The notes under the pieces were generated by a model. It had not been told where the DNA came from and made no database searches. It saw only the letters and a list, made by a program, of their open reading frames with translations. Below, piece after piece: positions 1,162 through 44,797 of a stretch of 44,797 nucleotides of DNA; positions within the stretch are counted from its first letter, which is position 1; each line of letters begins with the position of its first letter. Both the position numbers and the translations under genes were made by a program. Location: the IMG/VR virus record IMGVR_UViG_2568526230_000010; one strand, given 5' to 3'. This DNA is from a virus. Lineage: Duplodnaviria; Heunggongvirae; Uroviricota; Caudoviricetes.

Positions 1162-1260
1162 AATCATTCCCACTCAATTATTTACGGACACCATAACTAA
1201 TTGAGTGATAACATTTTTCCAAAGATGAATTTTTCTCGTACCGTTTTATATACCGTCACC
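1162..1260. other. Candidate att core and P' arm (start of attL/attP identity)
   Basis: First bases shared by the left junction and the inter-copy junction; contains 10-bp inverted repeat CACTCAATTA (1171-1180) / TAATTGAGTG (1198-1207) and the 11-mer ATACCGTCACC (1250-1260) that recurs in the opposite arm at 40954-40964. Confidence 0.35.
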
Positions 1261-1288
1261 GGAAATCAGTACCATGAAAAATGCCATG

Positions 1289-1771
1289 CTATCTGGTCAG
1301 TGTGTCGTACTGTTTTTCGCAGACTCTTCCGGCTTCGGCTGCCCGGTCAGCATACTCTGCCAGTTGTCTGTTTCTCTCGAGAGATTTGCTGAGCACGTCG
1401 GCAAGCAAAACTCCGGTGTCTGCGGCTGACGTCCCAGCGCCGACAATGGCGTTATACTGCCTGAGCTGCTCACGGATGGCAAAGAGTTGTTGCTGCAACC
1501 TGCCAGCGCGAGCGGCAGCATCAAGAGCATCGCTGCGCGCCTGCTCGATCCTCTGCTGCGCTTCACGTTCATTGGTCGCTTTCTCCTGTTCGTAGTGCTG
1601 ACGAACTTTTTCTTCTTCGGCTTTGCGGTCTTCTTTCGCCTGCGCATACCCGGCGTCGTACTGACGACTGCCGTGTGCATTCCAGGCTACAACTCCTGAT
1701 ATGACCAGAACAGCAAGCATCGCCATGATAACCAACTGTTTCCAGTATGCTTTTACGAATGCCCAGATCAT
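1289..1771 (-). CDS. Rz-like inner-membrane spanin
   Basis: 160 aa; N-terminal TM helix then Q/E/R/A-rich coiled coil; last gene of the lysis cassette, overlaps the endolysin stop by 4 nt. Confidence 0.75.
1297..1530 (-). CDS. Rz1-like outer-membrane lipoprotein spanin, embedded in Rz in the +1 frame
   Basis: Internal start gives [12 protein letters not shown]… with lipobox LAGC and a Pro/Ser-rich 77-aa product lying entirely inside the Rz ORF, as in lambda Rz/Rz1. Confidence 0.6.
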   Translation of the reverse strand: MLLMLPLALAGCSNNSLPSVSSSGSITPLSALGRQPQTPEFCLPTCSANLSRETDNWQSMLTGQPKPEESAKNSTTH

Positions 1772-2397
1772 ACCGCTAGCGCCTTACTGGCAGTGATGTA
1801 CCGAGCGCGCCGGTCGTCGATGCCGTTCCTGCCACCATTGATAATCAGAGTTACACGTGCAATATCGCCGGTATACTTCATGCAGCCTTTGCTGGAGAAA
1901 AACCACGCCGCGCTACGAGCTGCATATTCGTCCTGCGCCAGCAGTTCAGGATTCTCCAGCAGGTCCACTTTCAGGCCGTTTCCGCAGTCACGATAGTTAT
2001 TCAAACCGGTAATCTGGATAAGTCCGCGCCCACGGTAATTCCATCCATCGCCTGGGGCATTGTTACCCATGCGTTTGCTGTACACCAGATTTGCGATCGC
2101 GCGCTGGCGCTCGAGTTGCAATGGTGGTTCACCAGCACGGCGACCCAGTGCGTTGGCCTGTCCCTGAGTGAGACGTCCTGCCCGAACAAAGTTAGCCAGT
2201 CCTGTGACACTGTAGTTGAAATTCTCCTGCAACCTGGTGAAGCCACCAGACTCATGCCCGACTTGAGCAATAAACATTGCCTGATCTTCTGCTTTGCTGA
2301 TACCAAACTCTTTCATTGCAGAAGTTATATGCGAGAACCAGCGTGCGGCCAGCGCCTCGCTAATACCAGCAGCTCGCTGGAATTGTTTAATCTCCAT
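1768..2397 (-). CDS. Endolysin, glycoside hydrolase family 19 (chitinase-like lysozyme)
   Basis: 209 aa; motifs [12 protein letters not shown] and [12 protein letters not shown] typical of GH19 phage endolysins; sits between holin-like genes and Rz. Confidence 0.8.
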
Positions 2398-2695
2398 GTT
2401 TAGACCTCGTTATCTTGAAAATCTGAACGACGTTACCGCGAGTTTTAAGAACCGCAGCAAGCATGACAGCGTTGATAATGACCTCAGATAAATCCACAGC
2501 CATTGGCGTGCGTAACCAGATTGCATAGGCGACTCGAACAGGAATACTGGCCGCAGCAACAATCAGGAAATAAGCAAGCCATCCTCCCCACCTTCGATGT
2601 TGAGAGCCGTTACGCCGGAATGTGACAACGCGAATTGCTATGCCAGTGCAAATAACTGCATTGGTGATAAGCAAAAAAAACTCATGCGTTACCAT
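2387..2695 (-). CDS. Holin-like small membrane protein
   Basis: 102 aa with hydrophobic TM segments and a charged C-terminus; overlaps the endolysin start. Confidence 0.5.
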
Positions 2696-3086
2696 CGTCT
2701 TTTCTCCCCGGAATTAACTCGCGTGGATTATCGGAACGGTGATAGAGCCATATACCAATACGCACAGCGACAATTGCTGACACAAATGCGCCTGCAGAGA
2801 AAACAATCCCTTTTTCAAAAGAGTCCTGCGTGATGGTAGGGATCAGGCTGGCTATGCCGATAAGAATTGATGCTGCTGGTTTGTAAAAGAGAAGGCCGCA
2901 AAGAAAGCTGAGCATCGACAGGAGCACCCGGCGACGGATGGGGTACTCTACTGCAGAGGTAACAAAAATTACCGCCCCAGCCAAAGCCCCTAAAGCAACC
3001 TCCGGAGGGACACCTGCAATAACCGCAGCAAGAGAACTAACACTAAGCCACTGATTTGAAGTTTCATTGGTTAGTTGGAATGACAT
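2682..3086 (-). CDS. Holin/antiholin-like multi-TM membrane protein
   Basis: 134 aa, three to four hydrophobic helices; first gene of the lysis cassette, downstream of the tailspike. Confidence 0.5.
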   Translation of the reverse strand: MSFQLTNETSNQWLSVSSLAAVIAGVPPEVALGALAGAVIFVTSAVEYPIRRRVLLSMLSFLCGLLFYKPAASILIGIASLIPTITQDSFEKGIVFSAGAFVSAIVAVRIGIWLYHRSDNPRELIPGRKDDGNA

Positions 3087-3158
3087 AACGAAACCCGTTT
3101 ATTTGCAAACACCCTGCTTCAGGAAAAGTATACCGCGCAACAACACACCATTTACGGT

Positions 3159-5621
3159 TCAATTCCCTGTTAATTGCAAAACTTGCTCTTCCAGCTTTTT
3201 AACCCTGCGTCTCATCATCGCAGATTCCAGAATCAGAGCCTCTTCATAACGGATACCGTAACATTCACCAGCCTCGACGGCTTCGCGTACCAGAACCTTT
3301 GTCTGTATAAGTGGGTAAACTCCTGCAGAATGCTCTTCTTCCGTCACATCCCTGTATTCTGCCGGGGTCTCATTCCACTTGTCATAACAGATAAATGCCA
3401 GTCGTGACACATCTATGCCTTCATTCTGAAATACACTGATAACATGCTGCGCAACTGCACCAAAGTGCCATCTTGCTCCGTCTTTACCTTTCACTTCGAT
3501 CCTGTCAAGGTACTGGTATGAAACCCATTCCACTCTTTCCCATGCGTCCAGTATTTTCTCATCAATAACCTCTGGAGCAGTCTTGAAACGCGCATCGGAC
3601 AGCACCGTAAACGCTGACTGGGTAAATCCCCCCGACCATGCACGACCAGCCAACCCAAGAGAATAAGTATTCGTTGTCGATGGTGTCATGGCTGAATCAG
3701 AAAACTGTATATATTCTGAATTTCCAGTAGATATTCGAATATTTCCATTTATTAGCGACATAGTGCCTTTAGTATTATCACTATTGAATAATTTCAATTG
3801 CGAACTTATACCGCCTCCCACAGCCAGAGATACATCGCCTTCAGCAAGCATTCTGAATTTATCTGCAGAAACAAGCGTCTGGTTAGCAAGGTTAAAATAT
3901 TTAACCCACCATTCAAAACGCCCTGACATAGTCCCAACGTACTGACCAAGCGCAGGGACGTGAACAACATTGCTATTTGTAGTGCCGTCTATACTGGAAA
4001 TACCAGTCACCGCTGATGCAGAACTCAGAATATTATTTCTGTCACCAGGATGTTTAATTTCAACAAAGTTCCTGATACACCCTTCCTCGAAGGTAACCAC
4101 GCCGGAAGAACTATACATGGGGAATATTGACGCATAATTACTGCGTGCAGCATCTAAGAAACGAATGGTTGTAGATGTCTGCAGATCTCCTGATTCATTT
4201 TTCCCATCACACCCAGTCATTAGAATATTACTGGCAATATTATTATTTCCCTGAACGGTGACGCCGTGCGCCTGCTTTGCGTCCGATTCAGAGTAATCAA
4301 CCAGCACATCCGAAATCAGGTTACCAGTCCCCTTGCCAACAACTACTGCGGCGTATTTTGGGTTGTTAGCCATTACACTGCTAATGATATTATTCGTTGG
4401 GGCAGTTTCCGTCTCAGTTCCATTGTAAACAACGTGCTGACACTCTTCACCAATAACATTGCTGACAATGTTATATTTTGCTGCTGTTTTAAGTTCCACT
4501 GCACCAAACTGAGGATAATTTCTGGCTATCACACCATCAATTAGCGTATTTTGCGATGAATCAAAAAGCACACAACCTGCTTTTTTATTATTTGCGAACC
4601 CTAAATACTCTCCTCTTATATCTCTAACAATGTAACCTGACGGAATACCATTATTCGGATAAGCGATCAAGCTAAATCCTGTTCCTCGCGTATTTGTAAA
4701 TCTGATATTTTTAACCGATACATCATGGCCACCTGAAAATGACACCTGGTGTCCCTGCACACTATCATCTGATTTATTTCCCATAATTGTTAGCGTACTA
4801 AGCATGCCACCATCGGGCATGTTAAAAACCAGATGATTACCATCTCTGTCATACTGTTTTATCGTTCCCCCACCTGTTCCGTACAAGCCACAACGTGAAA
4901 GAGAAACTAAAGATGTATTGAATACCCCTTCCGGAACAAAAACACTGCTAAACGAATGTAATGATTTTGTAAAAGCATCCTTGTTATCATTTAAGATTCC
5001 ATTTTGAGCTCCAAAATCCTTAATGCTGACACCATCACGCATCTTATCCTGGAACGTTCTGTATACCGCTCCAGAACCATACTGAATAAACCAACCAAAA
5101 CCACCAATAACTCCGGCGATTGCAGCATCGACATAATTACGCATTGAGCGATTATTTACAGCGTCCTGCTCAAGTGATGGATCGGCAAGGTTAGATATTC
5201 TGTTTTGCTTTGCATCGTAATATTTTGCAAGCAAAGATGGTTTCATCAATGCACGTCTGAACAACCCAAAACATCGCTGGATCAGCATCGTCAGGTAGTC
5301 AAATGCATCCTCATGAACTTCGGGGAAAAATTTTCCCTGATTGCGAAGATCAGTCTCCTGCACCACATCAAGCACACGCTCTATCGTGATTCGCCAGCCA
5401 GCAGCAAGCGGCGACGGAAGAACCACTGCACCGCCACTATAAGTTCCCGCCCCTGTTACCGTATAACCAGCATCCAGCACTAGTTTTGTAACGTTACCGT
5501 TAAGGTCAGACACCTGAACAACCAGGTCGGATTTTTTGAAAATACGGAAGGTATACGGAAATGATGTCGTAACGCCGTTACCTGTGTATTCGTTGTGGTC
5601 AACTTCGGTTGAGACCGTCAT
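3159..5621 (-). CDS. Tailspike with beta-helix and C-terminal intramolecular chaperone (S74-type autoproteolytic) domain
   Basis: 820 aa; conserved podovirus particle-binding N-terminus; long Gly/Asn/Ser/Thr-rich repetitive middle; C-terminal 150 aa ending in a coiled coil resembles endosialidase-type chaperone domains. Confidence 0.8.
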   Translation of the reverse strand: MTVSTEVDHNEYTGNGVTTSFPYTFRIFKKSDLVVQVSDLNGNVTKLVLDAGYTVTGAGTYSGGAVVLPSPLAAGWRITIERVLDVVQETDLRNQGKFFPEVHEDAFDYLTMLIQRCFGLFRRALMKPSLLAKYYDAKQNRISNLADPSLEQDAVNNRSMRNYVDAAIAGVIGGFGWFIQYGSGAVYRTFQDKMRDGVSIKDFGAQNGILNDNKDAFTKSLHSFSSVFVPEGVFNTSLVSLSRCGLYGTGGGTIKQYDRDGNHLVFNMPDGGMLSTLTIMGNKSDDSVQGHQVSFSGGHDVSVKNIRFTNTRGTGFSLIAYPNNGIPSGYIVRDIRGEYLGFANNKKAGCVLFDSSQNTLIDGVIARNYPQFGAVELKTAAKYNIVSNVIGEECQHVVYNGTETETAPTNNIISSVMANNPKYAAVVVGKGTGNLISDVLVDYSESDAKQAHGVTVQGNNNIASNILMTGCDGKNESGDLQTSTTIRFLDAARSNYASIFPMYSSSGVVTFEEGCIRNFVEIKHPGDRNNILSSASAVTGISSIDGTTNSNVVHVPALGQYVGTMSGRFEWWVKYFNLANQTLVSADKFRMLAEGDVSLAVGGGISSQLKLFNSDNTKGTMSLINGNIRISTGNSEYIQFSDSAMTPSTTNTYSLGLAGRAWSGGFTQSAFTVLSDARFKTAPEVIDEKILDAWERVEWVSYQYLDRIEVKGKDGARWHFGAVAQHVISVFQNEGIDVSRLAFICYDKWNETPAEYRDVTEEEHSAGVYPLIQTKVLVREAVEAGECYGIRYEEALILESAMMRRRVKKLEEQVLQLTGN

Positions 5622-5725
5622 GTTAAATCTCCAGATAGTCGCAGCACCCGTTGCGCCGCATATCTGGTTATTCTATTACCTGAAAAACCATATATGGATA
5701 AAAAGACTGTAAATACGAATAGATA

Positions 5726-5740
5726 TTACCTTTCAGGTAA
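5726..5740. promoter_or_regulatory. Operator-like palindrome TTACCTTTCAGGTAA (perfect 6-3-6)
   Basis: Perfect inverted repeat in the divergent region between the tailspike and the accessory island; one of 13 family members. Confidence 0.5.
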
Positions 5741-5777
5741 TTTGCAAAACGTGCTGGATAGCAAACAAATTATTTGC

Positions 5778-5797
5778 TACTGTATAAATATACAGTT
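5778..5797. promoter_or_regulatory. LexA (SOS) box TACTGTATAAATATACAGTT
   Basis: CTGT-N8-ACAG with an AT-rich spacer, matching the enterobacterial SOS-box consensus at 19 of 20 positions; 21 nt upstream of the ATG at 5818. Confidence 0.7.
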
Positions 5798-5817
5798 ATT
5801 GCATGGAGAAGATTAAG

Positions 5818-6075
5818 ATGCAGCAGTATCACTATCCACTGGAAGACGGATTTACCGAAAGGATTCACACGCCGGGAGGCGTCAGGTCACTGGTGGAGGG
5901 ATCGCACTTGATGAAATTACTCCGGGATCTCGATAAGGATGGATTTAATGTCGATGGCCCACTTGCCGAACTGACTGCACTGATTAACTACGTCACCAGC
6001 TCACAGATGTCTATGCAGGATCTGCAAACACATCTCGACTATTGTGCCGAACAATTACGAAAACAAACCAGATAA
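5818..6075 (+). CDS. Small protein homologous to the C-terminal domain of the downstream antirepressor-like protein
   Basis: 85 aa; RBS GGAG 9 nt upstream; IHTPGGVRSLVEGSHLMKLL…MQDLQTHLDY aligns with IHSPSGVLGLTENSLLMNLL…LRDIQTHAEY in the 6889..7608 product. Confidence 0.6.
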   Translation: MQQYHYPLEDGFTERIHTPGGVRSLVEGSHLMKLLRDLDKDGFNVDGPLAELTALINYVTSSQMSMQDLQTHLDYCAEQLRKQTR

Positions 6076-6106
6076 GGTTTGAAATTACCAAATGGAGTGC
6101 TTATAT

Positions 6107-6121
6107 TTACCTTTGCGGTAA
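6107..6121. promoter_or_regulatory. Operator-like palindrome TTACCTTTGCGGTAA inside a hairpin
   Basis: Family member with one mismatch, lying in the loop of the inverted repeat GGAGTGC (6094-6100) / GCACTCC (6131-6137) just after the small-gene stop. Confidence 0.4.
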
Positions 6122-6147
6122 ATTTACATCGCACTCCTCTTGTGCCA

Positions 6148-6240
6148 TAGTAATCGGGCACTGGCAAAATCCAGTGCCGGGATTGGCGTCCCGGATTACT
6201 AGTAGGCGCATACCACGCCAGACGTGGTTTTTTTATGCGT
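6148..6240 (+). ncRNA. Candidate structured small RNA: tRNA-like three-way junction plus intrinsic terminator
   Basis: 8-bp closing stem TAGTAATC/GATTACTA encloses hairpins GGCACTGG-CAAAAT-CCAGTGCC and GGGA-TTGGCG-TCCC, followed by terminator ACCACG-CCAGA-CGTGGT plus T7; no credible ORF on either strand. Confidence 0.4.
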
Positions 6241-6389
6241 ATAGCACAGTCATATCCGAATTATGGTGGGCTGGGCAGGGGCACCGAAAGGTGCGCCGGT
6301 ACCTACTAGGCCGGTACGCCAACCTTGTCCAGTTCACCACCAGCAATTGGCGTTGCGGTGGTGGGTAACTTACTAGTAGAGGTATCGCT

Positions 6390-6896
6390 ATGCCAGGCCA
6401 AAAAATCTCAAACGACGATCTGTATTGGTTAATTTCTAATTCTCCACTCCTTCTTATGCTAAGGCAAGAAAGTGCACCACTGGTCAGTGAATTGATTAGC
6501 TGTAGAAATAGAATGTGGGATGAAGGGGCAGATTTAGATACCAATTTGTTTGATCATCTTATGCAACTAGCAGTCGATAACAAGGCAAAACTACGCTCTG
6601 AATACAACGCTTATCCAGAAATAGCAAAATACCTTAACGCTGAAATACTTGGTGGACCAGGTCAACCAGACCTAAAAACAAAAGATGGTTACCCTGTTGA
6701 GGTGAAGGTAGATACTTTTTCTCCTTCAGCATTAAAACAATTATTAAGGTATATGGATGCTTCTGGCGCAGATTTTGGTTTTGCTTGTGCAAAAACTCTT
6801 TCTGTAAAACTCCCTGAAAACATAAAGTTCATCCAGTTAGATTATAAAGATAATTGCTATTTCGTCGTGAAAGATGGAGGCAATGAAAATGCGTAA
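6390..6896 (+). CDS. Hypothetical protein, AT-rich accessory gene coupled to the antirepressor-like gene
   Basis: 168 aa; RBS GAGGT 5 nt upstream; lower GC than flanking phage genes; its end overlaps the start of the next gene. Confidence 0.55.
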   Translation: MPGQKISNDDLYWLISNSPLLLMLRQESAPLVSELISCRNRMWDEGADLDTNLFDHLMQLAVDNKAKLRSEYNAYPEIAKYLNAEILGGPGQPDLKTKDGYPVEVKVDTFSPSALKQLLRYMDASGADFGFACAKTLSVKLPENIKFIQLDYKDNCYFVVKDGGNENA

Positions 6897-7608
6897 TATA
6901 GCTATTGATAAGTTGCCGATAACAACTCATTGCAACATCCCTGTAATGACTACAGAAATGCTTGCTGATTTGTATGACACAGAACCCAAACTGATTCGTC
7001 AAAACTATCAACGAAATGCAGATCGATTCATTGAGGGAAAACATTGTTTCAAGCTGATAGGCGAAGAATTACGAGCATTTAAGAACGAGTCCTCTCAAAG
7101 AGGTTTGCTTAATATTGCACCAAAAGTAAGTCATCTTTTCTTATGGACCGCTCGCGGTGCAGCACGACATGCGAAAATTCTTGAGACTGAAAAAGCGTGG
7201 GAGGTCTTCGAAAAACTGGAAGATTGCTACTTCGACAGAAAACCCGCAAATGTCAGTGGAGATGTTCGTCTCTCAGGTGGAGCTGATTTATCAAAGGCCA
7301 CTCAGGTAATTGAAAAATTCATGCCCGCCATTATGGAGGCGATCAAGCTGGAAGACAAAAAAGAATACAGTGCCCCACTGAAGCCCGGCTACCGCAGCCT
7401 GATTCATTCTCCGTCTGGTGTTCTCGGCCTGACGGAGAACTCACTGCTGATGAATCTGCTGAACCAGTTACAGGAAGACGGGCACGACGTATCGGGCGCG
7501 GCGGCGGAGCTGACCACCATGTTCTGCTACATCGTCGGTGTGAGCAAATGCCTGCGTGATATCCAGACCCACGCGGAGTACATCAACGACAAGGCAGGGT
7601 TCTTCTGA
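6889..7608 (+). CDS. Antirepressor-like protein with N-terminal ORF6N-type DNA-binding domain
   Basis: N-terminus fits the ORF6N pattern (VMTTEMLADLYDTEPKLIRQNYQRNADRFIEGKHCFKLIGEEL); C-terminal domain is a paralog of the 5818..6075 product. Start placed at the ATG 8 nt after GGAGG; the ORF track starts at 6874. Confidence 0.65.
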   Translation: MRNIAIDKLPITTHCNIPVMTTEMLADLYDTEPKLIRQNYQRNADRFIEGKHCFKLIGEELRAFKNESSQRGLLNIAPKVSHLFLWTARGAARHAKILETEKAWEVFEKLEDCYFDRKPANVSGDVRLSGGADLSKATQVIEKFMPAIMEAIKLEDKKEYSAPLKPGYRSLIHSPSGVLGLTENSLLMNLLNQLQEDGHDVSGAAAELTTMFCYIVGVSKCLRDIQTHAEYINDKAGFF

Positions 7609-7680
7609 CGGGCGGCGGCACATGGATGTGCCTTTAAATAATTCTGTACAGATTGCAGACTGTGGGTGAATAGCGTACTA

Positions 7681-7755: not shown

Positions 7756-7935
7756 ATGCGAAACGAAAAATTGCAGATGCGTAGAGCGCAAGCTGCCGCA
7801 AGACGTTCTTTCAATGGAAGCGTAGAGTACGTAAAAGTTACTATGACAAAAGATCACGCAAGTCGCGTATCCCGCGCTTTCTTTGATTCTCGTAACAATA
7901 AGGAAAATTATGAGTTCGTCTGCGTCGCAGAATGA
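7756..7935 (+). CDS. Small basic protein, candidate antitoxin or regulator partner of the YafO-like toxin
   Basis: 59 aa, below the ORF-track cutoff; RBS GAGGT 6 nt upstream; Arg/Lys-rich; its 3' end overlaps the toxin start by 26 nt. No Phd/YefM/YafN-like signature recognised. Confidence 0.35.
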   Translation: MRNEKLQMRRAQAAARRSFNGSVEYVKVTMTKDHASRVSRAFFDSRNNKENYEFVCVAE

Positions 7936-8455
7936 TAAAAATCAAATTGTCAGATATAAGGGTCGAGTGTTGCATACGCAAAATTTCTCGGCCCTTTGTG
8001 CATCTGATCTTGAGCTGAAGAAAGTATCTGATGCCTTTACCCAGTATTGGAAAACGGGATACCATCCATCTCTTGGTAAAGATGCTGCATTTGCTCGTCC
8101 GACAGAAATGCTTAAACTAAATGTCAGGCATACTCATGTCGATAACCAAGACTATATTCCAGAAGATAGTGATAAAAAACACACTGGTAAAAAATCATCT
8201 TGGGATGCATGGAAAAATATAGCGTCTGTACAAGTAAAATGCATACCAACAAGTGATTGCTTTTTAGTTTATTCGGTAAATCACAATCGTGATGCGCTGG
8301 TTATGTTTTTTGTTGACGCAGATGCTCACAACATAACTGAGCAAGAAGAGTTTAAAGAGGAAGCAATCACTATCAGTTATCAATTCTTTGAGAAAACAAA
8401 AACAGAACCAATGCCTTTAGAAGAAGATCTTTTTTCTGATAAATGGAAGGAATAG
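7910..8455 (+). CDS. YafO-family toxin homolog (ribosome-dependent mRNA interferase family) with C-terminal extension
   Basis: Aligns by eye with E. coli YafO as recalled: FTQYWKTGYHPSLGKDAAFARP vs FISYKRDGVLPDIFGRDALYD, LNVRHTHV vs ERVAHIHL, CFLVYSV…ALVMFFV vs AHLVYCQ…AWLLIAI. Start at the ATG with RBS AAGGA; AT-rich; followed by a terminator. Confidence 0.65.
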   Translation: MSSSASQNDKNQIVRYKGRVLHTQNFSALCASDLELKKVSDAFTQYWKTGYHPSLGKDAAFARPTEMLKLNVRHTHVDNQDYIPEDSDKKHTGKKSSWDAWKNIASVQVKCIPTSDCFLVYSVNHNRDALVMFFVDADAHNITEQEEFKEEAITISYQFFEKTKTEPMPLEEDLFSDKWKE

Positions 8456-8745: not shown

Positions 8746-9306
8746 CTACATTGATATATGATTCATAAAGTAGCTTAAAGATTTACTTCCCAGAAAAGAA
8801 ATTTCTTTTCCTGGATATGTCGCAATAATTGAGCATGACTTATCCCCGTTAGAGGTAACAAATCCTGAATAACCTACTTGTTCTTTACCATTTTGTTGCT
8901 TGGCTAAAAAGTAGAGGTAGCTTATCTTTTTGCCCTCTGGGTAAAACTCTGCCAAACCAGTATCGGTGATTGAATATTTTATTCTCCCGCCTTGAGTAAC
9001 GTTTTCCATCTCAAGTTTAGCTATGTCTTTTCTGTTGTATTCAGCATTGATTTTCCTTTCGAAATCAATGTTGTTTTCAAATGAGTAGGAAGCAACAGTC
9101 TGAATAGATGGGAACACGTTTATCTGGATGCCTCCACAGTCGGCACAGGTATAAAGGTATGAATCAGATGGAATCCCCATAAAAGAAAACTGAGTTACCT
9201 TAAATTTATCGCTATCTCCAAAGTATTGAAGTTCGCATTTAACATTTTGCCCTGCAAAAGAAAATGCAGACATCAATATTGAAACAAAAAATATAATTGC
9301 CTTCAT
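8746..9306 (-). CDS. Exported protein of unknown function, AT-rich moron at the end of the late operon
   Basis: 186 aa; signal peptide MKAIIFFVSILMSAFSFA; markedly lower GC than the upstream ejection-protein gene; start 3 nt after the preceding stop. Confidence 0.6.
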   Translation of the reverse strand: MKAIIFFVSILMSAFSFAGQNVKCELQYFGDSDKFKVTQFSFMGIPSDSYLYTCADCGGIQINVFPSIQTVASYSFENNIDFERKINAEYNRKDIAKLEMENVTQGGRIKYSITDTGLAEFYPEGKKISYLYFLAKQQNGKEQVGYSGFVTSNGDKSCSIIATYPGKEISFLGSKSLSYFMNHISM

Positions 9307-25474: not shown

Positions 25475-25551
25475 GTGGCATTAGCTCAGTTGGACAGAGC
25501 AACCGCCTTCTAAGCGGTTGGTCGCAGGTTCGAATCCTGCATGCCACGCCA
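25475..25551 (+). tRNA. tRNA-Arg (anticodon UCU), phage-encoded
   Basis: Cloverleaf folded by hand: acceptor GTGGCAT/ATGCCAC, D-stem GCTC/GAGC, anticodon stem ACCGC/GCGGT with loop CTTCTAA, T-arm GCAGG-TTCGAAT-CCTGC, discriminator G and encoded CCA. Acceptor stem differs from host argU as recalled. Confidence 0.85.
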
Positions 25552-39646: not shown

Positions 39647-40897
39647 TTATTCCCCCGCCATCCACTTCTCAAACTTCGACGGGGAGAACGGAATCAGATC
39701 CGTATGCTCCCCGTCAATCCATGAATCAATCATATCGGCCCACTGCTGCAACATGTAGGCGCGCTGTCTGGCGTATTCCGCTTTGTTATATACGGCGCGC
39801 ACACCTTTCTGCTCATGTGCCAGAGCCTTTTCAATCCAGTCTGAAGGATAACCAGCCTCATGCAACAACGTACTGGCTGTACGGCGCATATCATGTACAG
39901 TGAAGTCCTGAATATGCTCACCATCTTCATTTATTATTTTCACCGTTCTGTCGATCAGAGAGTTCAGCGCGGCATTAGATAATGGCTTCCGGAAATTGTA
40001 ACGACCAGGAACCAGATATTCACTTCCACCAGCGCACATCTGCAACCCGACCAATATATCCTGTGCCTGTTTAGGCAGGTAAATAACGTGCGCCCGGCTT
40101 CCCTTCATGCGGTCTGGAGGAATTGTCCATGTCCATTTTTTAAAATCTATTTCATCCCACGTTGCATTGGTGAATTCGCCCTTACGAACCATAGTGATAA
40201 GCACCAGTTTTAAAGCCATTTTCATAGTGCCCATAGCACCAATGGCATCCAGCGTGCGGAAGAACAGGCCAATTTCTTCTGGTGTCAGTGTTCGCTCTCG
40301 TGGTTTAAATATGGCGATAGACGAAGGTTTAATGTCAGCCGCAGGATTAAACAAACCATGACCACGGTCATTGGCGTGACGGTATACGCTACTGATGATC
40401 TCCCTGGCCTGCACTGCTGTTGCCCGGCCACCGCGTTCGACAATCCGGTCACACAAATCACGAACCATCGATGTGGTAATTTCAGCCATCATTTTATTGC
40501 CAAGAACCGGAAGTATGTCACGGTCGATCACCGCCTGTTTCATTGCGCGGGTACTGTCAGCCAGGATGACGTGTTTCATATAACTGTCGGTATGTACCGC
40601 AAACGTCTCGGCACCACGAATCTTTTTGATACCGTCACGTTTAGCCGCAGCCGGTGACTGGCCTGCTTTAAGCAGCTTCTTTGCAGCAATCAGTTCTTCT
40701 CGCGCTTCTGCCAGGCTGATACCGTCACGCCCATACTGCCCGATTACCAGTGTTTCGCGGCGACCGTTGATACGGTAGTCATAGCGAAACGAGACCGTGC
40801 CTGACGTAAGCACAGCTACATACAGCCCGTCACGATCGGAGACCTTGTACAGTTTGTCCTGCGGCTTGAGGTTTTTTAATTTTGTATCGGTAAGCAC
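39647..40897 (-). CDS. int: Tyrosine integrase (P4-type with N-terminal arm-binding domain)
   Basis: 416 aa; N-terminal DUF4102-like region (LYKVSDRDGLYVAVLTSGTVSFRYDYR) and C-terminal catalytic region with HDMRRT and a conserved Tyr; last gene before the inter-copy junction. Confidence 0.85.
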   Translation of the reverse strand: MLTDTKLKNLKPQDKLYKVSDRDGLYVAVLTSGTVSFRYDYRINGRRETLVIGQYGRDGISLAEAREELIAAKKLLKAGQSPAAAKRDGIKKIRGAETFAVHTDSYMKHVILADSTRAMKQAVIDRDILPVLGNKMMAEITTSMVRDLCDRIVERGGRATAVQAREIISSVYRHANDRGHGLFNPAADIKPSSIAIFKPRERTLTPEEIGLFFRTLDAIGAMGTMKMALKLVLITMVRKGEFTNATWDEIDFKKWTWTIPPDRMKGSRAHVIYLPKQAQDILVGLQMCAGGSEYLVPGRYNFRKPLSNAALNSLIDRTVKIINEDGEHIQDFTVHDMRRTASTLLHEAGYPSDWIEKALAHEQKGVRAVYNKAEYARQRAYMLQQWADMIDSWIDGEHTDLIPFSPSKFEKWMAGE

Positions 40898-41087
40898 AAT
40901 TCACCCGTATAGAAACCATTTTCATGACGGTATGAGAGTATACCTTTAAGGTAATACCGTCACCTGTACCGACGAAAAATATGGTGTAGAGTGAATAGAA
41001 ATGAATACATAAAAACAAAAACCCTCTGTAAAAACAGAGGGTTAAATTAGTATCTGAATAGGAATGAGTTGCTATGAGTTAGCTGTT
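40898..41087. other. attP-type P arm between the integrase and the second prophage copy
   Basis: Unique 190-bp segment carrying a terminator hairpin, an ATACCT-N3-AGGTAA site (40940-40954) and the ATACCGTCACC repeat (40954-40964); identity with the left junction resumes at 41088. Confidence 0.5.
41011..41043 (-). terminator. Terminator hairpin nearly identical to the host-flank terminator
   Basis: Stem AACCCTCTGT/ACAGAGGGTT identical to 1114-1137; loop AAAA instead of AGTA; U-tract only on the minus strand. Confidence 0.55.
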
Positions 41088-41214
41088 AATCATTCCCACT
41101 CAATTATTTACGGACACCATAACTAATTGAGTGATAACATTTTTCCAAAGATGAATTTTTCTCGTACCGTTTTATATACCGTCACCGGAAATCAGTACCA
41201 TGAAAAATGCCATG

Positions 41215-41697
41215 CTATCTGGTCAGTGTGTCGTACTGTTTTTCGCAGACTCTTCCGGCTTCGGCTGCCCGGTCAGCATACTCTGCCAGTTGTCTGTTTC
41301 TCTCGAGAGATTTGCTGAGCACGTCGGCAAGCAAAACTCCGGTGTCTGCGGCTGACGTCCCAGCGCCGACAATGGCGTTATACTGCCTGAGCTGCTCACG
41401 GATGGCAAAGAGTTGTTGCTGCAACCTGCCAGCGCGAGCGGCAGCATCAAGAGCATCGCTGCGCGCCTGCTCGATCCTCTGCTGCGCTTCACGTTCATTG
41501 GTCGCTTTCTCCTGTTCGTAGTGCTGACGAACTTTTTCTTCTTCGGCTTTGCGGTCTTCTTTCGCCTGCGCATACCCGGCGTCGTACTGACGACTGCCGT
41601 GTGCATTCCAGGCTACAACTCCTGATATGACCAGAACAGCAAGCATCGCCATGATAACCAACTGTTTCCAGTATGCTTTTACGAATGCCCAGATCAT
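41215..41697 (-). CDS. Rz-like spanin (copy 2)
   Basis: Protein identical to the 1289..1771 product. Confidence 0.75.
41223..41456 (-). CDS. Embedded Rz1-like lipoprotein spanin (copy 2)
   Basis: Identical to the 1297..1530 ORF. Confidence 0.55.
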   Translation of the reverse strand: MLLMLPLALAGCSNNSLPSVSSSGSITPLSALGRQPQTPEFCLPTCSANLSRETDNWQSMLTGQPKPEESAKNSTTH

Positions 41698-42323
41698 ACC
41701 GCTAGCGCCTTACTGGCAGTGATGTACCGAGCGCGCCGGTCGTCGATGCCGTTCCTGCCACCATTGATAATCAGAGTTACACGTGCAATATCGCCGGTAT
41801 ACTTCATGCAGCCTTTGCTGGAGAAAAACCACGCCGCGCTACGAGCTGCATATTCGTCCTGCGCCAGCAGTTCAGGATTCTCCAGCAGGTCCACTTTCAG
41901 GCCGTTTCCGCAGTCACGATAGTTATTCAAACCGGTAATCTGGATAAGTCCGCGCCCACGGTAATTCCATCCATCGCCTGGGGCATTGTTACCCATGCGT
42001 TTGCTGTACACCAGATTTGCGATCGCGCGCTGGCGCTCGAGTTGCAATGGTGGTTCACCAGCACGGCGACCCAGTGCGTTGGCCTGTCCCTGAGTGAGAC
42101 GTCCTGCCCGAACAAAGTTAGCCAGTCCTGTGACACTGTAGTTGAAATTCTCCTGCAACCTGGTGAAGCCACCAGACTCATGCCCGACTTGAGCAATAAA
42201 CATTGCCTGATCTTCTGCTTTGCTGATACCAAACTCTTTCATTGCAGAAGTTATATGCGAGAACCAGCGTGCGGCCAGCGCCTCGCTAATACCAGCAGCT
42301 CGCTGGAATTGTTTAATCTCCAT
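41694..42323 (-). CDS. GH19 endolysin (copy 2)
   Basis: Protein identical to the 1768..2397 product. Confidence 0.8.
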
Positions 42324-42621
42324 GTTTAGACCTCGTTATCTTGAAAATCTGAACGACGTTACCGCGAGTTTTAAGAACCGCAGCAAGCATGACAGCGTTG
42401 ATAATGACCTCAGATAAATCCACAGCCATTGGCGTGCGTAACCAGATTGCATAGGCGACTCGAACAGGAATACTGGCCGCAGCAACAATCAGGAAATAAG
42501 CAAGCCATCCTCCCCACCTTCGATGTTGAGAGCCGTTACGCCGGAATGTGACAACGCGAATTGCTATGCCAGTGCAAATAACTGCATTGGTGATAAGCAA
42601 AAAAAACTCATGCGTTACCAT
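42313..42621 (-). CDS. Holin-like membrane protein (copy 2)
   Basis: Identical to 2387..2695. Confidence 0.5.
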
Positions 42622-43012
42622 CGTCTTTTCTCCCCGGAATTAACTCGCGTGGATTATCGGAACGGTGATAGAGCCATATACCAATACGCACAGCGACAAT
42701 TGCTGACACAAATGCGCCTGCAGAGAAAACAATCCCTTTTTCAAAAGAGTCCTGCGTGATGGTAGGGATCAGGCTGGCTATGCCGATAAGAATTGATGCT
42801 GCTGGTTTGTAAAAGAGAAGGCCGCAAAGAAAGCTGAGCATCGACAGGAGCACCCGGCGACGGATGGGGTACTCTACTGCAGAGGTAACAAAAATTACCG
42901 CCCCAGCCAAAGCCCCTAAAGCAACCTCCGGAGGGACACCTGCAATAACCGCAGCAAGAGAACTAACACTAAGCCACTGATTTGAAGTTTCATTGGTTAG
43001 TTGGAATGACAT
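42608..43012 (-). CDS. Holin/antiholin-like membrane protein (copy 2)
   Basis: Identical to 2682..3086. Confidence 0.5.
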   Translation of the reverse strand: MSFQLTNETSNQWLSVSSLAAVIAGVPPEVALGALAGAVIFVTSAVEYPIRRRVLLSMLSFLCGLLFYKPAASILIGIASLIPTITQDSFEKGIVFSAGAFVSAIVAVRIGIWLYHRSDNPRELIPGRKDDGNA

Positions 43013-43084
43013 AACGAAACCCGTTTATTTGCAAACACCCTGCTTCAGGAAAAGTATACCGCGCAACAACACACCATTTACGGT

Positions 43085-44797
43085 TCAATTCCCTGTTAAT
43101 TGCAAAACTTGCTCTTCCAGCTTTTTAACCCTGCGTCTCATCATCGCAGATTCCAGAATCAGAGCCTCTTCATAACGGATACCGTAACATTCACCAGCCT
43201 CGACGGCTTCGCGTACCAGAACCTTTGTCTGTATAAGTGGGTAAACTCCTGCAGAATGCTCTTCTTCCGTCACATCCCTGTATTCTGCCGGGGTCTCATT
43301 CCACTTGTCATAACAGATAAATGCCAGTCGTGACACATCTATGCCTTCATTCTGAAATACACTGATAACATGCTGCGCAACTGCACCAAAGTGCCATCTT
43401 GCTCCGTCTTTACCTTTCACTTCGATCCTGTCAAGGTACTGGTATGAAACCCATTCCACTCTTTCCCATGCGTCCAGTATTTTCTCATCAATAACCTCTG
43501 GAGCAGTCTTGAAACGCGCATCGGACAGCACCGTAAACGCTGACTGGGTAAATCCCCCCGACCATGCACGACCAGCCAACCCAAGAGAATAAGTATTCGT
43601 TGTCGATGGTGTCATGGCTGAATCAGAAAACTGTATATATTCTGAATTTCCAGTAGATATTCGAATATTTCCATTTATTAGCGACATAGTGCCTTTAGTA
43701 TTATCACTATTGAATAATTTCAATTGCGAACTTATACCGCCTCCCACAGCCAGAGATACATCGCCTTCAGCAAGCATTCTGAATTTATCTGCAGAAACAA
43801 GCGTCTGGTTAGCAAGGTTAAAATATTTAACCCACCATTCAAAACGCCCTGACATAGTCCCAACGTACTGACCAAGCGCAGGGACGTGAACAACATTGCT
43901 ATTTGTAGTGCCGTCTATACTGGAAATACCAGTCACCGCTGATGCAGAACTCAGAATATTATTTCTGTCACCAGGATGTTTAATTTCAACAAAGTTCCTG
44001 ATACACCCTTCCTCGAAGGTAACCACGCCGGAAGAACTATACATGGGGAATATTGACGCATAATTACTGCGTGCAGCATCTAAGAAACGAATGGTTGTAG
44101 ATGTCTGCAGATCTCCTGATTCATTTTTCCCATCACACCCAGTCATTAGAATATTACTGGCAATATTATTATTTCCCTGAACGGTGACGCCGTGCGCCTG
44201 CTTTGCGTCCGATTCAGAGTAATCAACCAGCACATCCGAAATCAGGTTACCAGTCCCCTTGCCAACAACTACTGCGGCGTATTTTGGGTTGTTAGCCATT
44301 ACACTGCTAATGATATTATTCGTTGGGGCAGTTTCCGTCTCAGTTCCATTGTAAACAACGTGCTGACACTCTTCACCAATAACATTGCTGACAATGTTAT
44401 ATTTTGCTGCTGTTTTAAGTTCCACTGCACCAAACTGAGGATAATTTCTGGCTATCACACCATCAATTAGCGTATTTTGCGATGAATCAAAAAGCACACA
44501 ACCTGCTTTTTTATTATTTGCGAACCCTAAATACTCTCCTCTTATATCTCTAACAATGTAACCTGACGGAATACCATTATTCGGATAAGCGATCAAGCTA
44601 AATCCTGTTCCTCGCGTATTTGTAAATCTGATATTTTTAACCGATACATCATGGCCACCTGAAAATGACACCTGGTGTCCCTGCACACTATCATCTGATT
44701 TATTTCCCATAATTGTTAGCGTACTAAGCATGCCACCATCGGGCATGTTAAAAACCAGATGATTACCATCTCTGTCATACTGTTTTATCGTTCCCCC
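43085..44797 (-). CDS. Tailspike (copy 2), partial: N-terminal part lies beyond the window end
   Basis: Identical to the C-terminal 570 codons of 3159..5621; the reading frame stays open to the last base of the window. Confidence 0.75.
   Translation of the reverse strand, partial: GGTIKQYDRDGNHLVFNMPDGGMLSTLTIMGNKSDDSVQGHQVSFSGGHDVSVKNIRFTNTRGTGFSLIAYPNNGIPSGYIVRDIRGEYLGFANNKKAGCVLFDSSQNTLIDGVIARNYPQFGAVELKTAAKYNIVSNVIGEECQHVVYNGTETETAPTNNIISSVMANNPKYAAVVVGKGTGNLISDVLVDYSESDAKQAHGVTVQGNNNIASNILMTGCDGKNESGDLQTSTTIRFLDAARSNYASIFPMYSSSGVVTFEEGCIRNFVEIKHPGDRNNILSSASAVTGISSIDGTTNSNVVHVPALGQYVGTMSGRFEWWVKYFNLANQTLVSADKFRMLAEGDVSLAVGGGISSQLKLFNSDNTKGTMSLINGNIRISTGNSEYIQFSDSAMTPSTTNTYSLGLAGRAWSGGFTQSAFTVLSDARFKTAPEVIDEKILDAWERVEWVSYQYLDRIEVKGKDGARWHFGAVAQHVISVFQNEGIDVSRLAFICYDKWNETPAEYRDVTEEEHSAGVYPLIQTKVLVREAVEAGECYGIRYEEALILESAMMRRRVKKLEEQVLQLTGN

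Follow-up and report, generated by a model that had tools for sequence, protein, structure and literature searches.

The 44,797-nucleotide viral record IMGVR_UViG_2568526230_000010 (called here the window, meaning the whole stretch of DNA that was analyzed) is an epsilon15/phiV10-like (Uetakevirus-type) Escherichia coli prophage. Between positions 6,390 and 7,608 it carries an AT-rich open reading frame (ORF) of 168 amino acids, ORF168, whose end overlaps the start of an antirepressor-like gene with an ORF6N domain. The region is best explained as the secondary-immunity (immI-type) antirepressor operon of this prophage, in which an isrK-like leader RNA and a C4-type antisense RNA precede ORF168 and the antirepressor gene, and the C4 RNA would act at the ribosome-binding site (RBS) of ORF168. 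On balance, we regard this RNA-switched architecture as a whole, from isrK and C4 through ORF168 to the antirepressor, as probable. The product of ORF168 very likely has a PD-(D/E)xK nuclease fold. The features of the region are listed below.

6123..6151, plus strand: sigma-70-like promoter candidate, TTTACA-17-CATAGT with TG before the -10 element (consensus scan, 9 of 12 matches).
6158..6234, plus strand: isrK-like leader RNA (Rfam), with putative decoy copies of the C4 targets and an intrinsic terminator.
6259..6344, plus strand: C4-type antisense RNA (Rfam, full-length match), with elements b' and a'.
6347..6382, plus strand: predicted C4 target region on the mRNA, with a2 and b2 (complementarity scan, co-variation).
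6390..6896, plus strand: ORF168, the first cistron, with an N-terminal helical region and a C-terminal PD-(D/E)xK nuclease-like domain (predicted).
6876..6896, plus strand: putative coupling junction, with GGAGG, ATG 6889 and TAA 6894-6896, kept in seven loci.
6889..7608, plus strand: antirepressor-like gene, with an N-terminal ORF6N domain and a C-terminal domain from about 7333.
6365..7332, no strand assigned: AT-rich mosaic cassette of 968 bp containing ORF168 and the ORF6N domain (blastn boundaries, GC profile).

The sequence and the ORF list place ORF168 on the plus strand, from the ATG at 6390 to the TAA at 6894-6896. The ORF6N gene has in-frame ATG codons at 6874, 6883 and 6889. A GGAGG located at 6876-6880, inside ORF168, is spaced 8 nt from the ATG at 6889, and ATGCGTAA at 6889-6896 constitutes an 8-nt stop/start overlap between ORF168 and the antirepressor gene. 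A preliminary description, made from the letters of the window, had stated that ORF168 ends 8 nt inside the start of the ORF6N gene and that GGAGG lies within the upstream coding sequence; both statements are read directly from the sequence. The likely start that it assigned to the antirepressor also held, since ATG 6889 was the only candidate ATG present in all seven homologous loci when their junctions were aligned. ATG 6874 is missing from locus L016, and the Klebsiella and Enterobacter loci have lost ATG 6883; no variation affects ATG 6889, the G-rich Shine-Dalgarno sequence or the TAA stop. The low GC content of the upstream ORF, another of its observations, amounts to 37.7% compared with 49.4% for the window. 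The ORF6N half of the antirepressor gene has 41% GC and its C-terminal third 56%.

An Rfam scan of the window (gathering thresholds of 45 bits for C4, 50 for isrK and 46.7 for c4-a1b1) produced three matches above threshold, two of them directly 5' of ORF168 and on the same strand. One is a full-length match to the C4 antisense RNA (RF01695, 76.7 bits, 6259-6344) and the other a match to isrK (RF01394, 68.1 bits, 6158-6234). A permissive scan added the family described as a1 and b1 targets of C4, slightly under its threshold (45.1 bits at 6145-6197). The isrK match contains an intrinsic terminator, a stem at 6212-6228 followed by a run of T residues. The promoter candidate, a consensus match only, ends 7 nt 5' of isrK, which would place the transcription start at about the first base of isrK. 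The consensus scan detected no plus-strand promoter-like site inside ORF168. Among the loci scanned with Rfam, C4 and isrK are above threshold also in relatives L001-L004, L006, L008, L010, L012, L016 and L022, and the isrK-C4 module is present in 275 phage records.

The recognition sites of the C4 RNA were searched as exact complementary words between each C4 gene and its flanks. Applied to phage P1, the scan returned exactly the annotated sites (a1 256-262, b1 270-276, a2 424-430 and b2 453-460, in locus coordinates). In the window it recovered the equivalent set of six sites:

6183-6189, plus strand: a1, TTGGCGT, in isrK.
6199-6206, plus strand: b1, CTAGTAGG, in isrK.
6302-6309, plus strand: b', CCTACTAG, in the loop of C4 hairpin 2.
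6316-6322, plus strand: a', ACGCCAA, in C4.
6347-6353, plus strand: a2, TTGGCGT, 3' of C4.
6373-6379, plus strand: b2, CTAGTAG, the stretch CTAGTAG(A)GG occupying 6373-6382.

The b2 site runs into GAGG at 6379-6382, which is the Shine-Dalgarno sequence of ORF168 and lies 7 nt before the ATG at 6390. The heptamer CTAGTAG occurs three times in the 44.8 kb of the window, and these occurrences are b1, b' (as its complement) and b2. The calculated energy of the duplex formed by the C4 loop is -16.3 kcal/mol at the RBS of ORF168 and -16.1 kcal/mol at the isrK site, against a background of -7.9 +/- 2.8 kcal/mol over the whole window. No comparable complementarity was found at the RBS of the antirepressor gene, where the value is -4.5 kcal/mol. 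The strong pairing at the former RBS and the lack of a comparable one at the latter indicate that the RNA switch addresses ORF168 and not the antirepressor.

Comparison of different phages showed that the b sites co-vary as sets. The set in the window is CTACTAG/CTAGTAG, while Salmonella, Citrobacter and Enterobacter loci have CGTTTAG/CTAAACG, K. aerogenes, phiV10, ZX5 and TL-2011b have CCTTTTAG/CTAAAAGG, K. pneumoniae has CCTTTGTAG/CTACAAAGG and the Stx1 phage AU5Stx1 has TCCTTTTTC/GAAAAAGGA. The a sites co-vary too, in the forms ACGCCAA, AGACCAA and GTTCCAA, each with matching a1 and a2. A C4 RNA's own target was its best pairing, or within 0.7 kcal/mol of the best, in 10 of 11 loci, L016 being the exception. 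The b sites of the window, of the CTAGTAG type, are unlike those of phiV10, ZX5 and TL-2011b, of the CTAAAAGG type, at all three copies, and the surrounding isrK-C4 DNA is 86-95% identical. This pattern resembles the P1/P7 heteroimmunity. The CTAGTAG type was absent from the other loci examined. The preliminary description had likened the gene order to icd-ant of P1, and the likeness is now substantiated by C4 and isrK upstream, the P1-like set of six sites, the location of b2 on the Shine-Dalgarno sequence of ORF168 and the co-variation of the sites.

Several other observations concern the RNA segment. An ORF at 6264-6368 on the plus strand lies within C4, in the position of orf45 of Gifsy-1, and ends 21 nt 5' of ORF168. 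For the equivalent stretch, ZX5 has the coding-sequence annotation "ash family protein" and phiV10 the annotation "similar to hypothetical protein SF0880"; both are probably protein labels placed over an RNA gene. The 3' end of C4, CACCACC (6335-6341), is complementary to GGTGGTG at 6357-6363, directly downstream, which duplicates the 5' strand of the C4 closing stem. The pair is found in every isrK-C4 locus examined except P1 and could provide an alternative folding or guide processing. Matches to the Rfam family sRNA-Xcc1, of about 70 bits, adjoin distant homologues of ORF168 in L014 (3880-3962, immediately upstream of the homologue) and L026 (3629-3712). A different structured RNA may take the role of C4 beside those homologues.

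A single 8-nt overlap is common in phage genomes and by itself is not beyond chance; it is its conservation that lifts it above chance. The ATGNNTAA overlap and the G-rich Shine-Dalgarno sequence are kept in Escherichia, Salmonella, Citrobacter, Klebsiella (two species), Enterobacter and one metagenomic contig, and all the contexts of close homologues that were retrieved have the same ORF168/antirepressor overlap. This retention is meaningful because the synonymous divergence among those ORF168 genes ranges from 0.3 to above 2, that is, to saturation. With no C4 site at the RBS of the antirepressor gene and no internal promoter-like site, the antirepressor can be under C4 control only through ORF168. 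Since ORF168 sits between the controlled RBS and the antirepressor gene, expression of the latter must follow translation of ORF168 in order to stay under C4. We therefore infer that the antirepressor depends on translation of ORF168, by translational coupling and/or polarity.

ORF168 evolves under purifying selection. Its ratio of nonsynonymous to synonymous substitution rates (dN/dS) is 0.05-0.27, a value that, together with conservation across genera, ruled out that it is not a real gene. The absence of a recognizable family for the upstream ORF, as given in the preliminary description, stands for Pfam (no match at E values up to 0.1) and PADLOC (no match). It does not stand at the level of PHROG, where phrog_18738, of unknown function, matches ORF168 over its full length, nor at the level of fold. 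A profile search of 1.84 billion representatives found 304 relatives, of which about 20 are full length and the rest match positions of roughly 92-155. Ten residues (E71, Y75, D94, P102, E104, K106, Q117, R120, Y121 and G130) show no variation among 24 homologues; for those of the core (E71, D94, E104, K106, Q117 and Y121), conservation across 150 sequences is 90% or higher. The conserved motifs are E71, P93-D94, E104-x-K106 and Q117-x-x-x-Y121, and the pattern E...PD...ExK...QxxxY is, at the sequence level, the signature of RecB/Cas4-type PD-(D/E)xK nucleases. In a set of Protein Data Bank (PDB) sequences the ORF168 profile matched Cas4 (4r5q, E value 0.0027), aligned on the D/ExK/QxxxY motifs, and distant homologues match the NucS_C, cas4 and NucS models weakly.

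The structure predicted by AlphaFold2 with 150 diverse homologues had a mean predicted local distance difference test score (pLDDT) of 93.8; with 10 close sequences the score was 43 and the model unusable. ORF168 is predicted to have the restriction-endonuclease-like alpha/beta core, and a Foldseek search of BFVD gave only two matches, both weak and restriction-endonuclease-like. The homology search and structure prediction that the preliminary description had suggested for the 168-amino-acid protein thus gave a predicted PD-(D/E)xK nuclease fold, no Pfam family and no similarity to Icd. The active site is apparently intact, as judged from its residues, and ORF168 may be an active nuclease. 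A homology of ORF168 with Icd was ruled out (BLASTP E value 17; the lengths and folds differ).

The contexts of about 15 of the 304 family members were inspected. A full-length homologue in L015, 44% identical, shares 4 nt with a P22_AR_N antirepressor gene, after which comes a KilA-N gene; the operon is under a divergent helix-turn-helix repressor and has no C4 RNA. In L021 a full-length homologue also has a 4-nt overlap, with an AntA-domain antirepressor gene. In L033 a core-only homologue is separated by 24 nt from the ORF6N+ANT gene downstream of it, the homologue of L014 follows a Rha gene (in one locus the distance to an upstream Rha-domain gene is about 500 nt), and a few distant homologues form fusions with Bro-N or Rha domains. 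That full-length members repeatedly overlap the 5' end of antirepressor genes with varied N-terminal domains and regulation suggests a functional partnership of this family with antirepressors, beyond the role of a leader.

The downstream gene had been assigned to ORF6N, and the assignment was confirmed by Pfam (PF10543, 67.8 bits compared with a cut-off of 27.8, E value 1e-18). The protein also matches phrog_1760, "anti-repressor" (E value 2e-97), and at the level of this annotation it would act on the main repressor of the phage. From about 7333 the gene encodes a C-terminal domain of the phrog_450 type, common to the Bro-N-type antirepressors of phiV10, ZX5 and TL-2011b; Pfam found no KilAC/ANT (PF03374) C-terminal domain in the protein. 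A homology with P1 Ant1 was ruled out (BLASTP E value 0.30). A 90-amino-acid ORF at 5803-6075 (plus strand), epsilon15 gp19-like and of the phrog_450 type, is a free-standing paralogue of the antirepressor C-terminal domain, 42% identical to antirepressor residues 149-231 (E value 3e-17). It lies just upstream of the isrK promoter, and its product could be a decoy or modulator of the antirepressor. Directly 3' of the antirepressor gene, a 59-amino-acid ORF at 7756-7935 (plus strand, phrog_6685) overlaps a 190-amino-acid ORF at 7883-8455 (plus strand) that has a Pfam match to the YafO toxin (26.1 bits, cut-off 25). The pair, which also occurs in TL-2011b, looks like a toxin-antitoxin system.

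According to blastn, phiV10, ZX5 and TL-2011b share the DNA of the window up to 6353-6364 and again from 7333. Where the window has the 968-bp cassette, they have a Bro-N domain (about 450 bp) directly after C4. As these phages place the antirepressor directly after C4, ORF168 and the ORF6N domain represent a swapped-in cassette, and ORF168 is an optional insertion between the controlled RBS and the antirepressor. Of 5,426 complete E. coli genomes, 22 contain the cassette, with an identity of at least 99.8%. Homologues of ORF168 form 11 clusters among 5.8 billion proteins, all of them in Enterobacteriaceae. Contexts were retrieved from Salmonella, Citrobacter, K. aerogenes, K. pneumoniae, Enterobacter and the metagenomic contig (51% identity), and every one has the order tailspike, 86-amino-acid ORF, isrK, C4, ORF168 and ORF6N antirepressor. 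A tblastn search of 50,697 phage records with ORF168 and the distant homologues P0031 and P0015 produced no match; the known members of the family all come from prophages and metagenomes.

Other observations concern the relatives and the window at large. In TL-2011b (L001) a second module, of the P22 immI type with an Arc-like repressor, sar RNA and Ant, adjoins the C4 module (4994-6178, also 5940-6007). The DNA for the C-terminal domain of this second Ant is 97% identical to window positions 7375-7631. At the equivalent position the window has a different gene, at 8746-9306 on the minus strand. Positions 1162-4871 and 41088-44797 of the window, which include lysis genes and part of the tailspike gene, are identical base for base over 3,710 bp, and bases 1-1161 are unrelated to 39927-41087. 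The repeat looks like two tandem prophage copies, or a prophage with a duplicated end, with a unit that would be 39,926 bp. A tRNA gene lies inside the prophage at 25475-25548 on the plus strand (Rfam tRNA, 73.3 bits).

The following sequence of events is proposed. The isrK promoter would fire just upstream of the isrK-like RNA, and most transcripts would stop at the isrK terminator. Read-through RNA would carry C4, ORF168 and the antirepressor gene, and C4 would be processed out of it by analogy with P1. Pairing of a' and b' with a2 and b2 would then occlude the RBS of ORF168 and block its translation. When ORF168 is not translated no antirepressor would be made, due to the lack of termination-reinitiation coupling and/or to polarity over about 500 nt of untranslated RNA. 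The a1 and b1 copies in isrK would compete for C4 or remodel the leader, like IsrK in Gifsy-1, and thereby set the switch. Once the block is lifted, ORF168 and the antirepressor would be made together, with ORF168 most likely serving as an accessory effector of the lytic switch, at the position held in P1 by the cell-division inhibitor Icd. The proposed promoter firing, read-through and C4 occlusion draw on the Rfam matches and on complementarity with co-variation. The later steps, namely the loss of the antirepressor when ORF168 is not translated, the competition by isrK and the joint synthesis, draw on analogy and on the lack of an alternative route. In all, we infer C4 processing, repression, and coupling or polarity.

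A number of results weigh against this scheme. The antirepressor gene has its own strong Shine-Dalgarno sequence (GGAGG with 8-nt spacing), from which translation could begin independently whenever a transcript extends that far. A hairpin sequestering this Shine-Dalgarno sequence is weak in the window (-19.5 kcal/mol, z -1.7) and was not recovered, nor was co-variation, when the homologues were analyzed with RNAalifold; unsupported by this comparison, the hairpin was dropped as evidence. Conservation at third codon positions was not clearly raised at the junction (0.22 compared with 0.12 elsewhere in the gene, with few codons). Over most of ORF168 G exceeds C, with no obvious Rho-loading region except at 6384-6461, where the C/G ratio is 2.0; this C-rich stretch is a possible Rho entry site. 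The processing of C4 and the repression are assumed here from P1. In phiV10, ZX5, TL-2011b and the Stx phages, C4 is followed directly by the antirepressor, which makes ORF168 dispensable for the circuit as such. As for the protein, no Pfam nuclease family reaches threshold on ORF168, a Foldseek search of the PDB gave no significant match (best E value 0.058), and core-only distant homologues are also found in unrelated contexts.

Some of these points would fit a different reading, in which ORF168 is an independent cargo gene (moron), for example a defense or anti-defense nuclease, that arrived between C4 and the antirepressor along with the ORF6N domain. The overlap would then be ordinary packing, the antirepressor would use its own RBS, and C4 would act on it via transcription or not at all. 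The cassette is indeed AT-rich, mosaic and rare (the 22 E. coli genomes and 11 protein clusters mentioned above), with sharp boundaries at 6365 and 7332; the antirepressor has its strong Shine-Dalgarno sequence, which no conserved hairpin hides, and relatives work without ORF168. However, the co-varying pairing of C4 and b2 would in that case control the cargo only, and the antirepressor would escape the immunity RNA. The sets of a and b sites are moreover maintained with ORF168 as first cistron across the sampled genera, and neither the overlap nor the Shine-Dalgarno sequence varies at a synonymous divergence that has reached saturation. Overlaps of full-length homologues with antirepressor genes of different families occur also in the absence of a C4 RNA (L015), and ORF168 has no PADLOC match. 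For these reasons we consider the cargo reading unlikely.

The association of the family with antirepressor genes also allows the proposal that ORF168 and the "antirepressor" make up a single effector of two proteins, a nuclease with a DNA-binding or adaptor subunit, forming a toxic or DNA-targeting module guarded by the RNA, as opposed to a classical antirepressor directed at a repressor protein. Full-length homologues located immediately 5' of, and overlapping, ORF6N, P22_AR_N or AntA genes are consistent with it, as are the Rha-domain gene about 500 nt upstream in one locus, the Bro-N or Rha fusions among some distant homologues, the family-wide conservation of the catalytic residues and weak PADLOC matches of the antirepressor to the defense-candidate family PDC-S05 (E value 2e-8). 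It is nevertheless improbable: the C-terminal domain of the antirepressor occurs also in phiV10-type Bro-N antirepressors that lack ORF168, the operon position and RNA control match those of bona fide antirepressor operons (P1, Gifsy-1), and core-only distant homologues exist that have no antirepressor neighbors. That ORF168 is instead a functional analogue of P1 Icd, inhibiting cell division or growth of the host, seems highly improbable. It has the same position as icd and the same kind of stop/start overlap with the antirepressor, but the lack of sequence similarity to Icd noted above, a 168-amino-acid nuclease fold compared with the 73 amino acids of Icd, which acts on FtsZ (PMC11897509), and a sequence in which nothing points to FtsZ all argue against it.

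The proposed immI-type operon, which would be switched by RNA through ORF168, follows a regulatory logic already known from P1 and Gifsy-1, that is, control of an antirepressor by isrK and C4 via an upstream cistron. What is new is that the gene through which such control passes can be full-size, selectively maintained and enzyme-like, and need not be a short leader or Icd. Also new are the placement of ORF168 in an uncharacterized PD-(D/E)xK family (phrog_18738, with phrog_25037 as a distant relative), the location of full-length members immediately 5' of antirepressor genes whose domains belong to three or more unrelated types, and the three-way co-variation of a and b sites across Escherichia, Salmonella, Citrobacter, Klebsiella and Enterobacter loci and a metagenomic contig. 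These loci provide natural specificity variants, comparable to the P1/P7 heteroimmunity, that could be used for testing the recognition by C4-type RNAs. If the nuclease is active and needed for induction or phage exclusion, it would bring a further class of effector into the lysis-lysogeny switch and would explain why antirepressor-like genes often travel with unknown partners. A stronger proposal, which we put forward as speculative and rather doubtful, is that the ORF168 family consists of hitherto unrecognized nucleases that are obligate partners of antirepressor-type proteins (ORF6N, P22_AR_N, AntA, Bro-N and Rha). If this were true, a phage overcoming the immunity RNA would fire a repressor antagonist together with an enzyme that cuts DNA. 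This enzyme might be directed at the DNA of the host or of rivals, or its action might trigger an SOS response that makes induction irreversible, and many "antirepressor" operons would be two-component nuclease switches.

At the protein level, the closest known systems are the Cas4/RecB-type and NucS/EndoMS nucleases. The E...PD...ExK...QxxxY motifs of ORF168 align with those of Cas4 4r5q, but its N-terminal helical region is distinct, and its size is much below that of NucS. Cas4 carries a four-cysteine Fe-S cluster motif. ORF168 does not have it, and its alignment includes only two invariant cysteines.

The antirepressor modules of phiV10, ZX5, TL-2011b and the Stx phages share the logic of the a and b sites and, in the case of the Uetakevirus-type relatives, the isrK-C4 DNA (86-95% identical). 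The ORF6N domain of the antirepressor of AU5Stx1 is 52% identical to that of the window. In contrast to the window, the b2 site of these modules is on the antirepressor's own Shine-Dalgarno sequence, with no intervening protein gene. The RNA of N15 acts mainly through premature transcription termination. The RNA of P4 also differs in acting mainly by that mechanism (PMC4825925). The likeness to the anti-immunity system of N15 and the seqA-CI system of P4 consists in small processed RNAs of the C4/CI class that control an antirepressor or replication operon, and the RNA systems of P4, P1, P7, N15 and the isrK-C4 type have been noted as structurally similar (PMC3632133).

The isrK-orf45-anrP locus of Gifsy-1 in Salmonella (Hershko-Shalev et al. 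2016, PMC4825925) has an isrK RNA with a read-through terminator and a C4-like region (STnc1160) downstream of isrK, and in both loci the stop of an upstream ORF overlaps the start of the antirepressor gene. In Gifsy-1 this ORF is orf45, whose stop overlaps the start of anrP, and mutations of its start codon and premature stops showed that its translation is needed for AnrP (PMC4825925). The coupled orf45, however, lies within the C4-like RNA, and its amino acid sequence is not conserved. In the window, the C4-internal ORF ends at 6368, 520 nt before the antirepressor gene, and forms no AUGA overlap with it; the ORF that does overlap is a separate gene of 507 nt under purifying selection.

The immI region of P1 and P7 (c4-icd-ant1/ant2) is a further counterpart. 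The annotated P1 record has promoters, a1, b1, c4 RNA, a2, b2, icd and ant1 in that order, with icd at 471-692 and ant1 from 689, a 4-nt overlap, and describes icd as "apparently required for expression of ant". The window differs in that its first cistron encodes a 168-amino-acid protein of predicted nuclease fold instead of the dissimilar 73-amino-acid Icd, its ORF6N-type antirepressor is unrelated to Ant1, its a1/b1 region is in the isrK form with a terminator of its own, and its phage is an integrated epsilon15/phiV10-like podovirus and not a P1-like plasmid prophage. The order of promoter, a1/b1, C4, a2/b2, first cistron and antirepressor is the same. In both P1 and the window b2 covers the Shine-Dalgarno sequence of the first cistron, the stop of that cistron overlaps the start of the antirepressor gene (ATGA in P1, ATGCGTAA in the window), and a G-rich Shine-Dalgarno sequence for the antirepressor lies inside the upstream gene. 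As in P1 and P7, variation of the b sites would give rise to different specificities.

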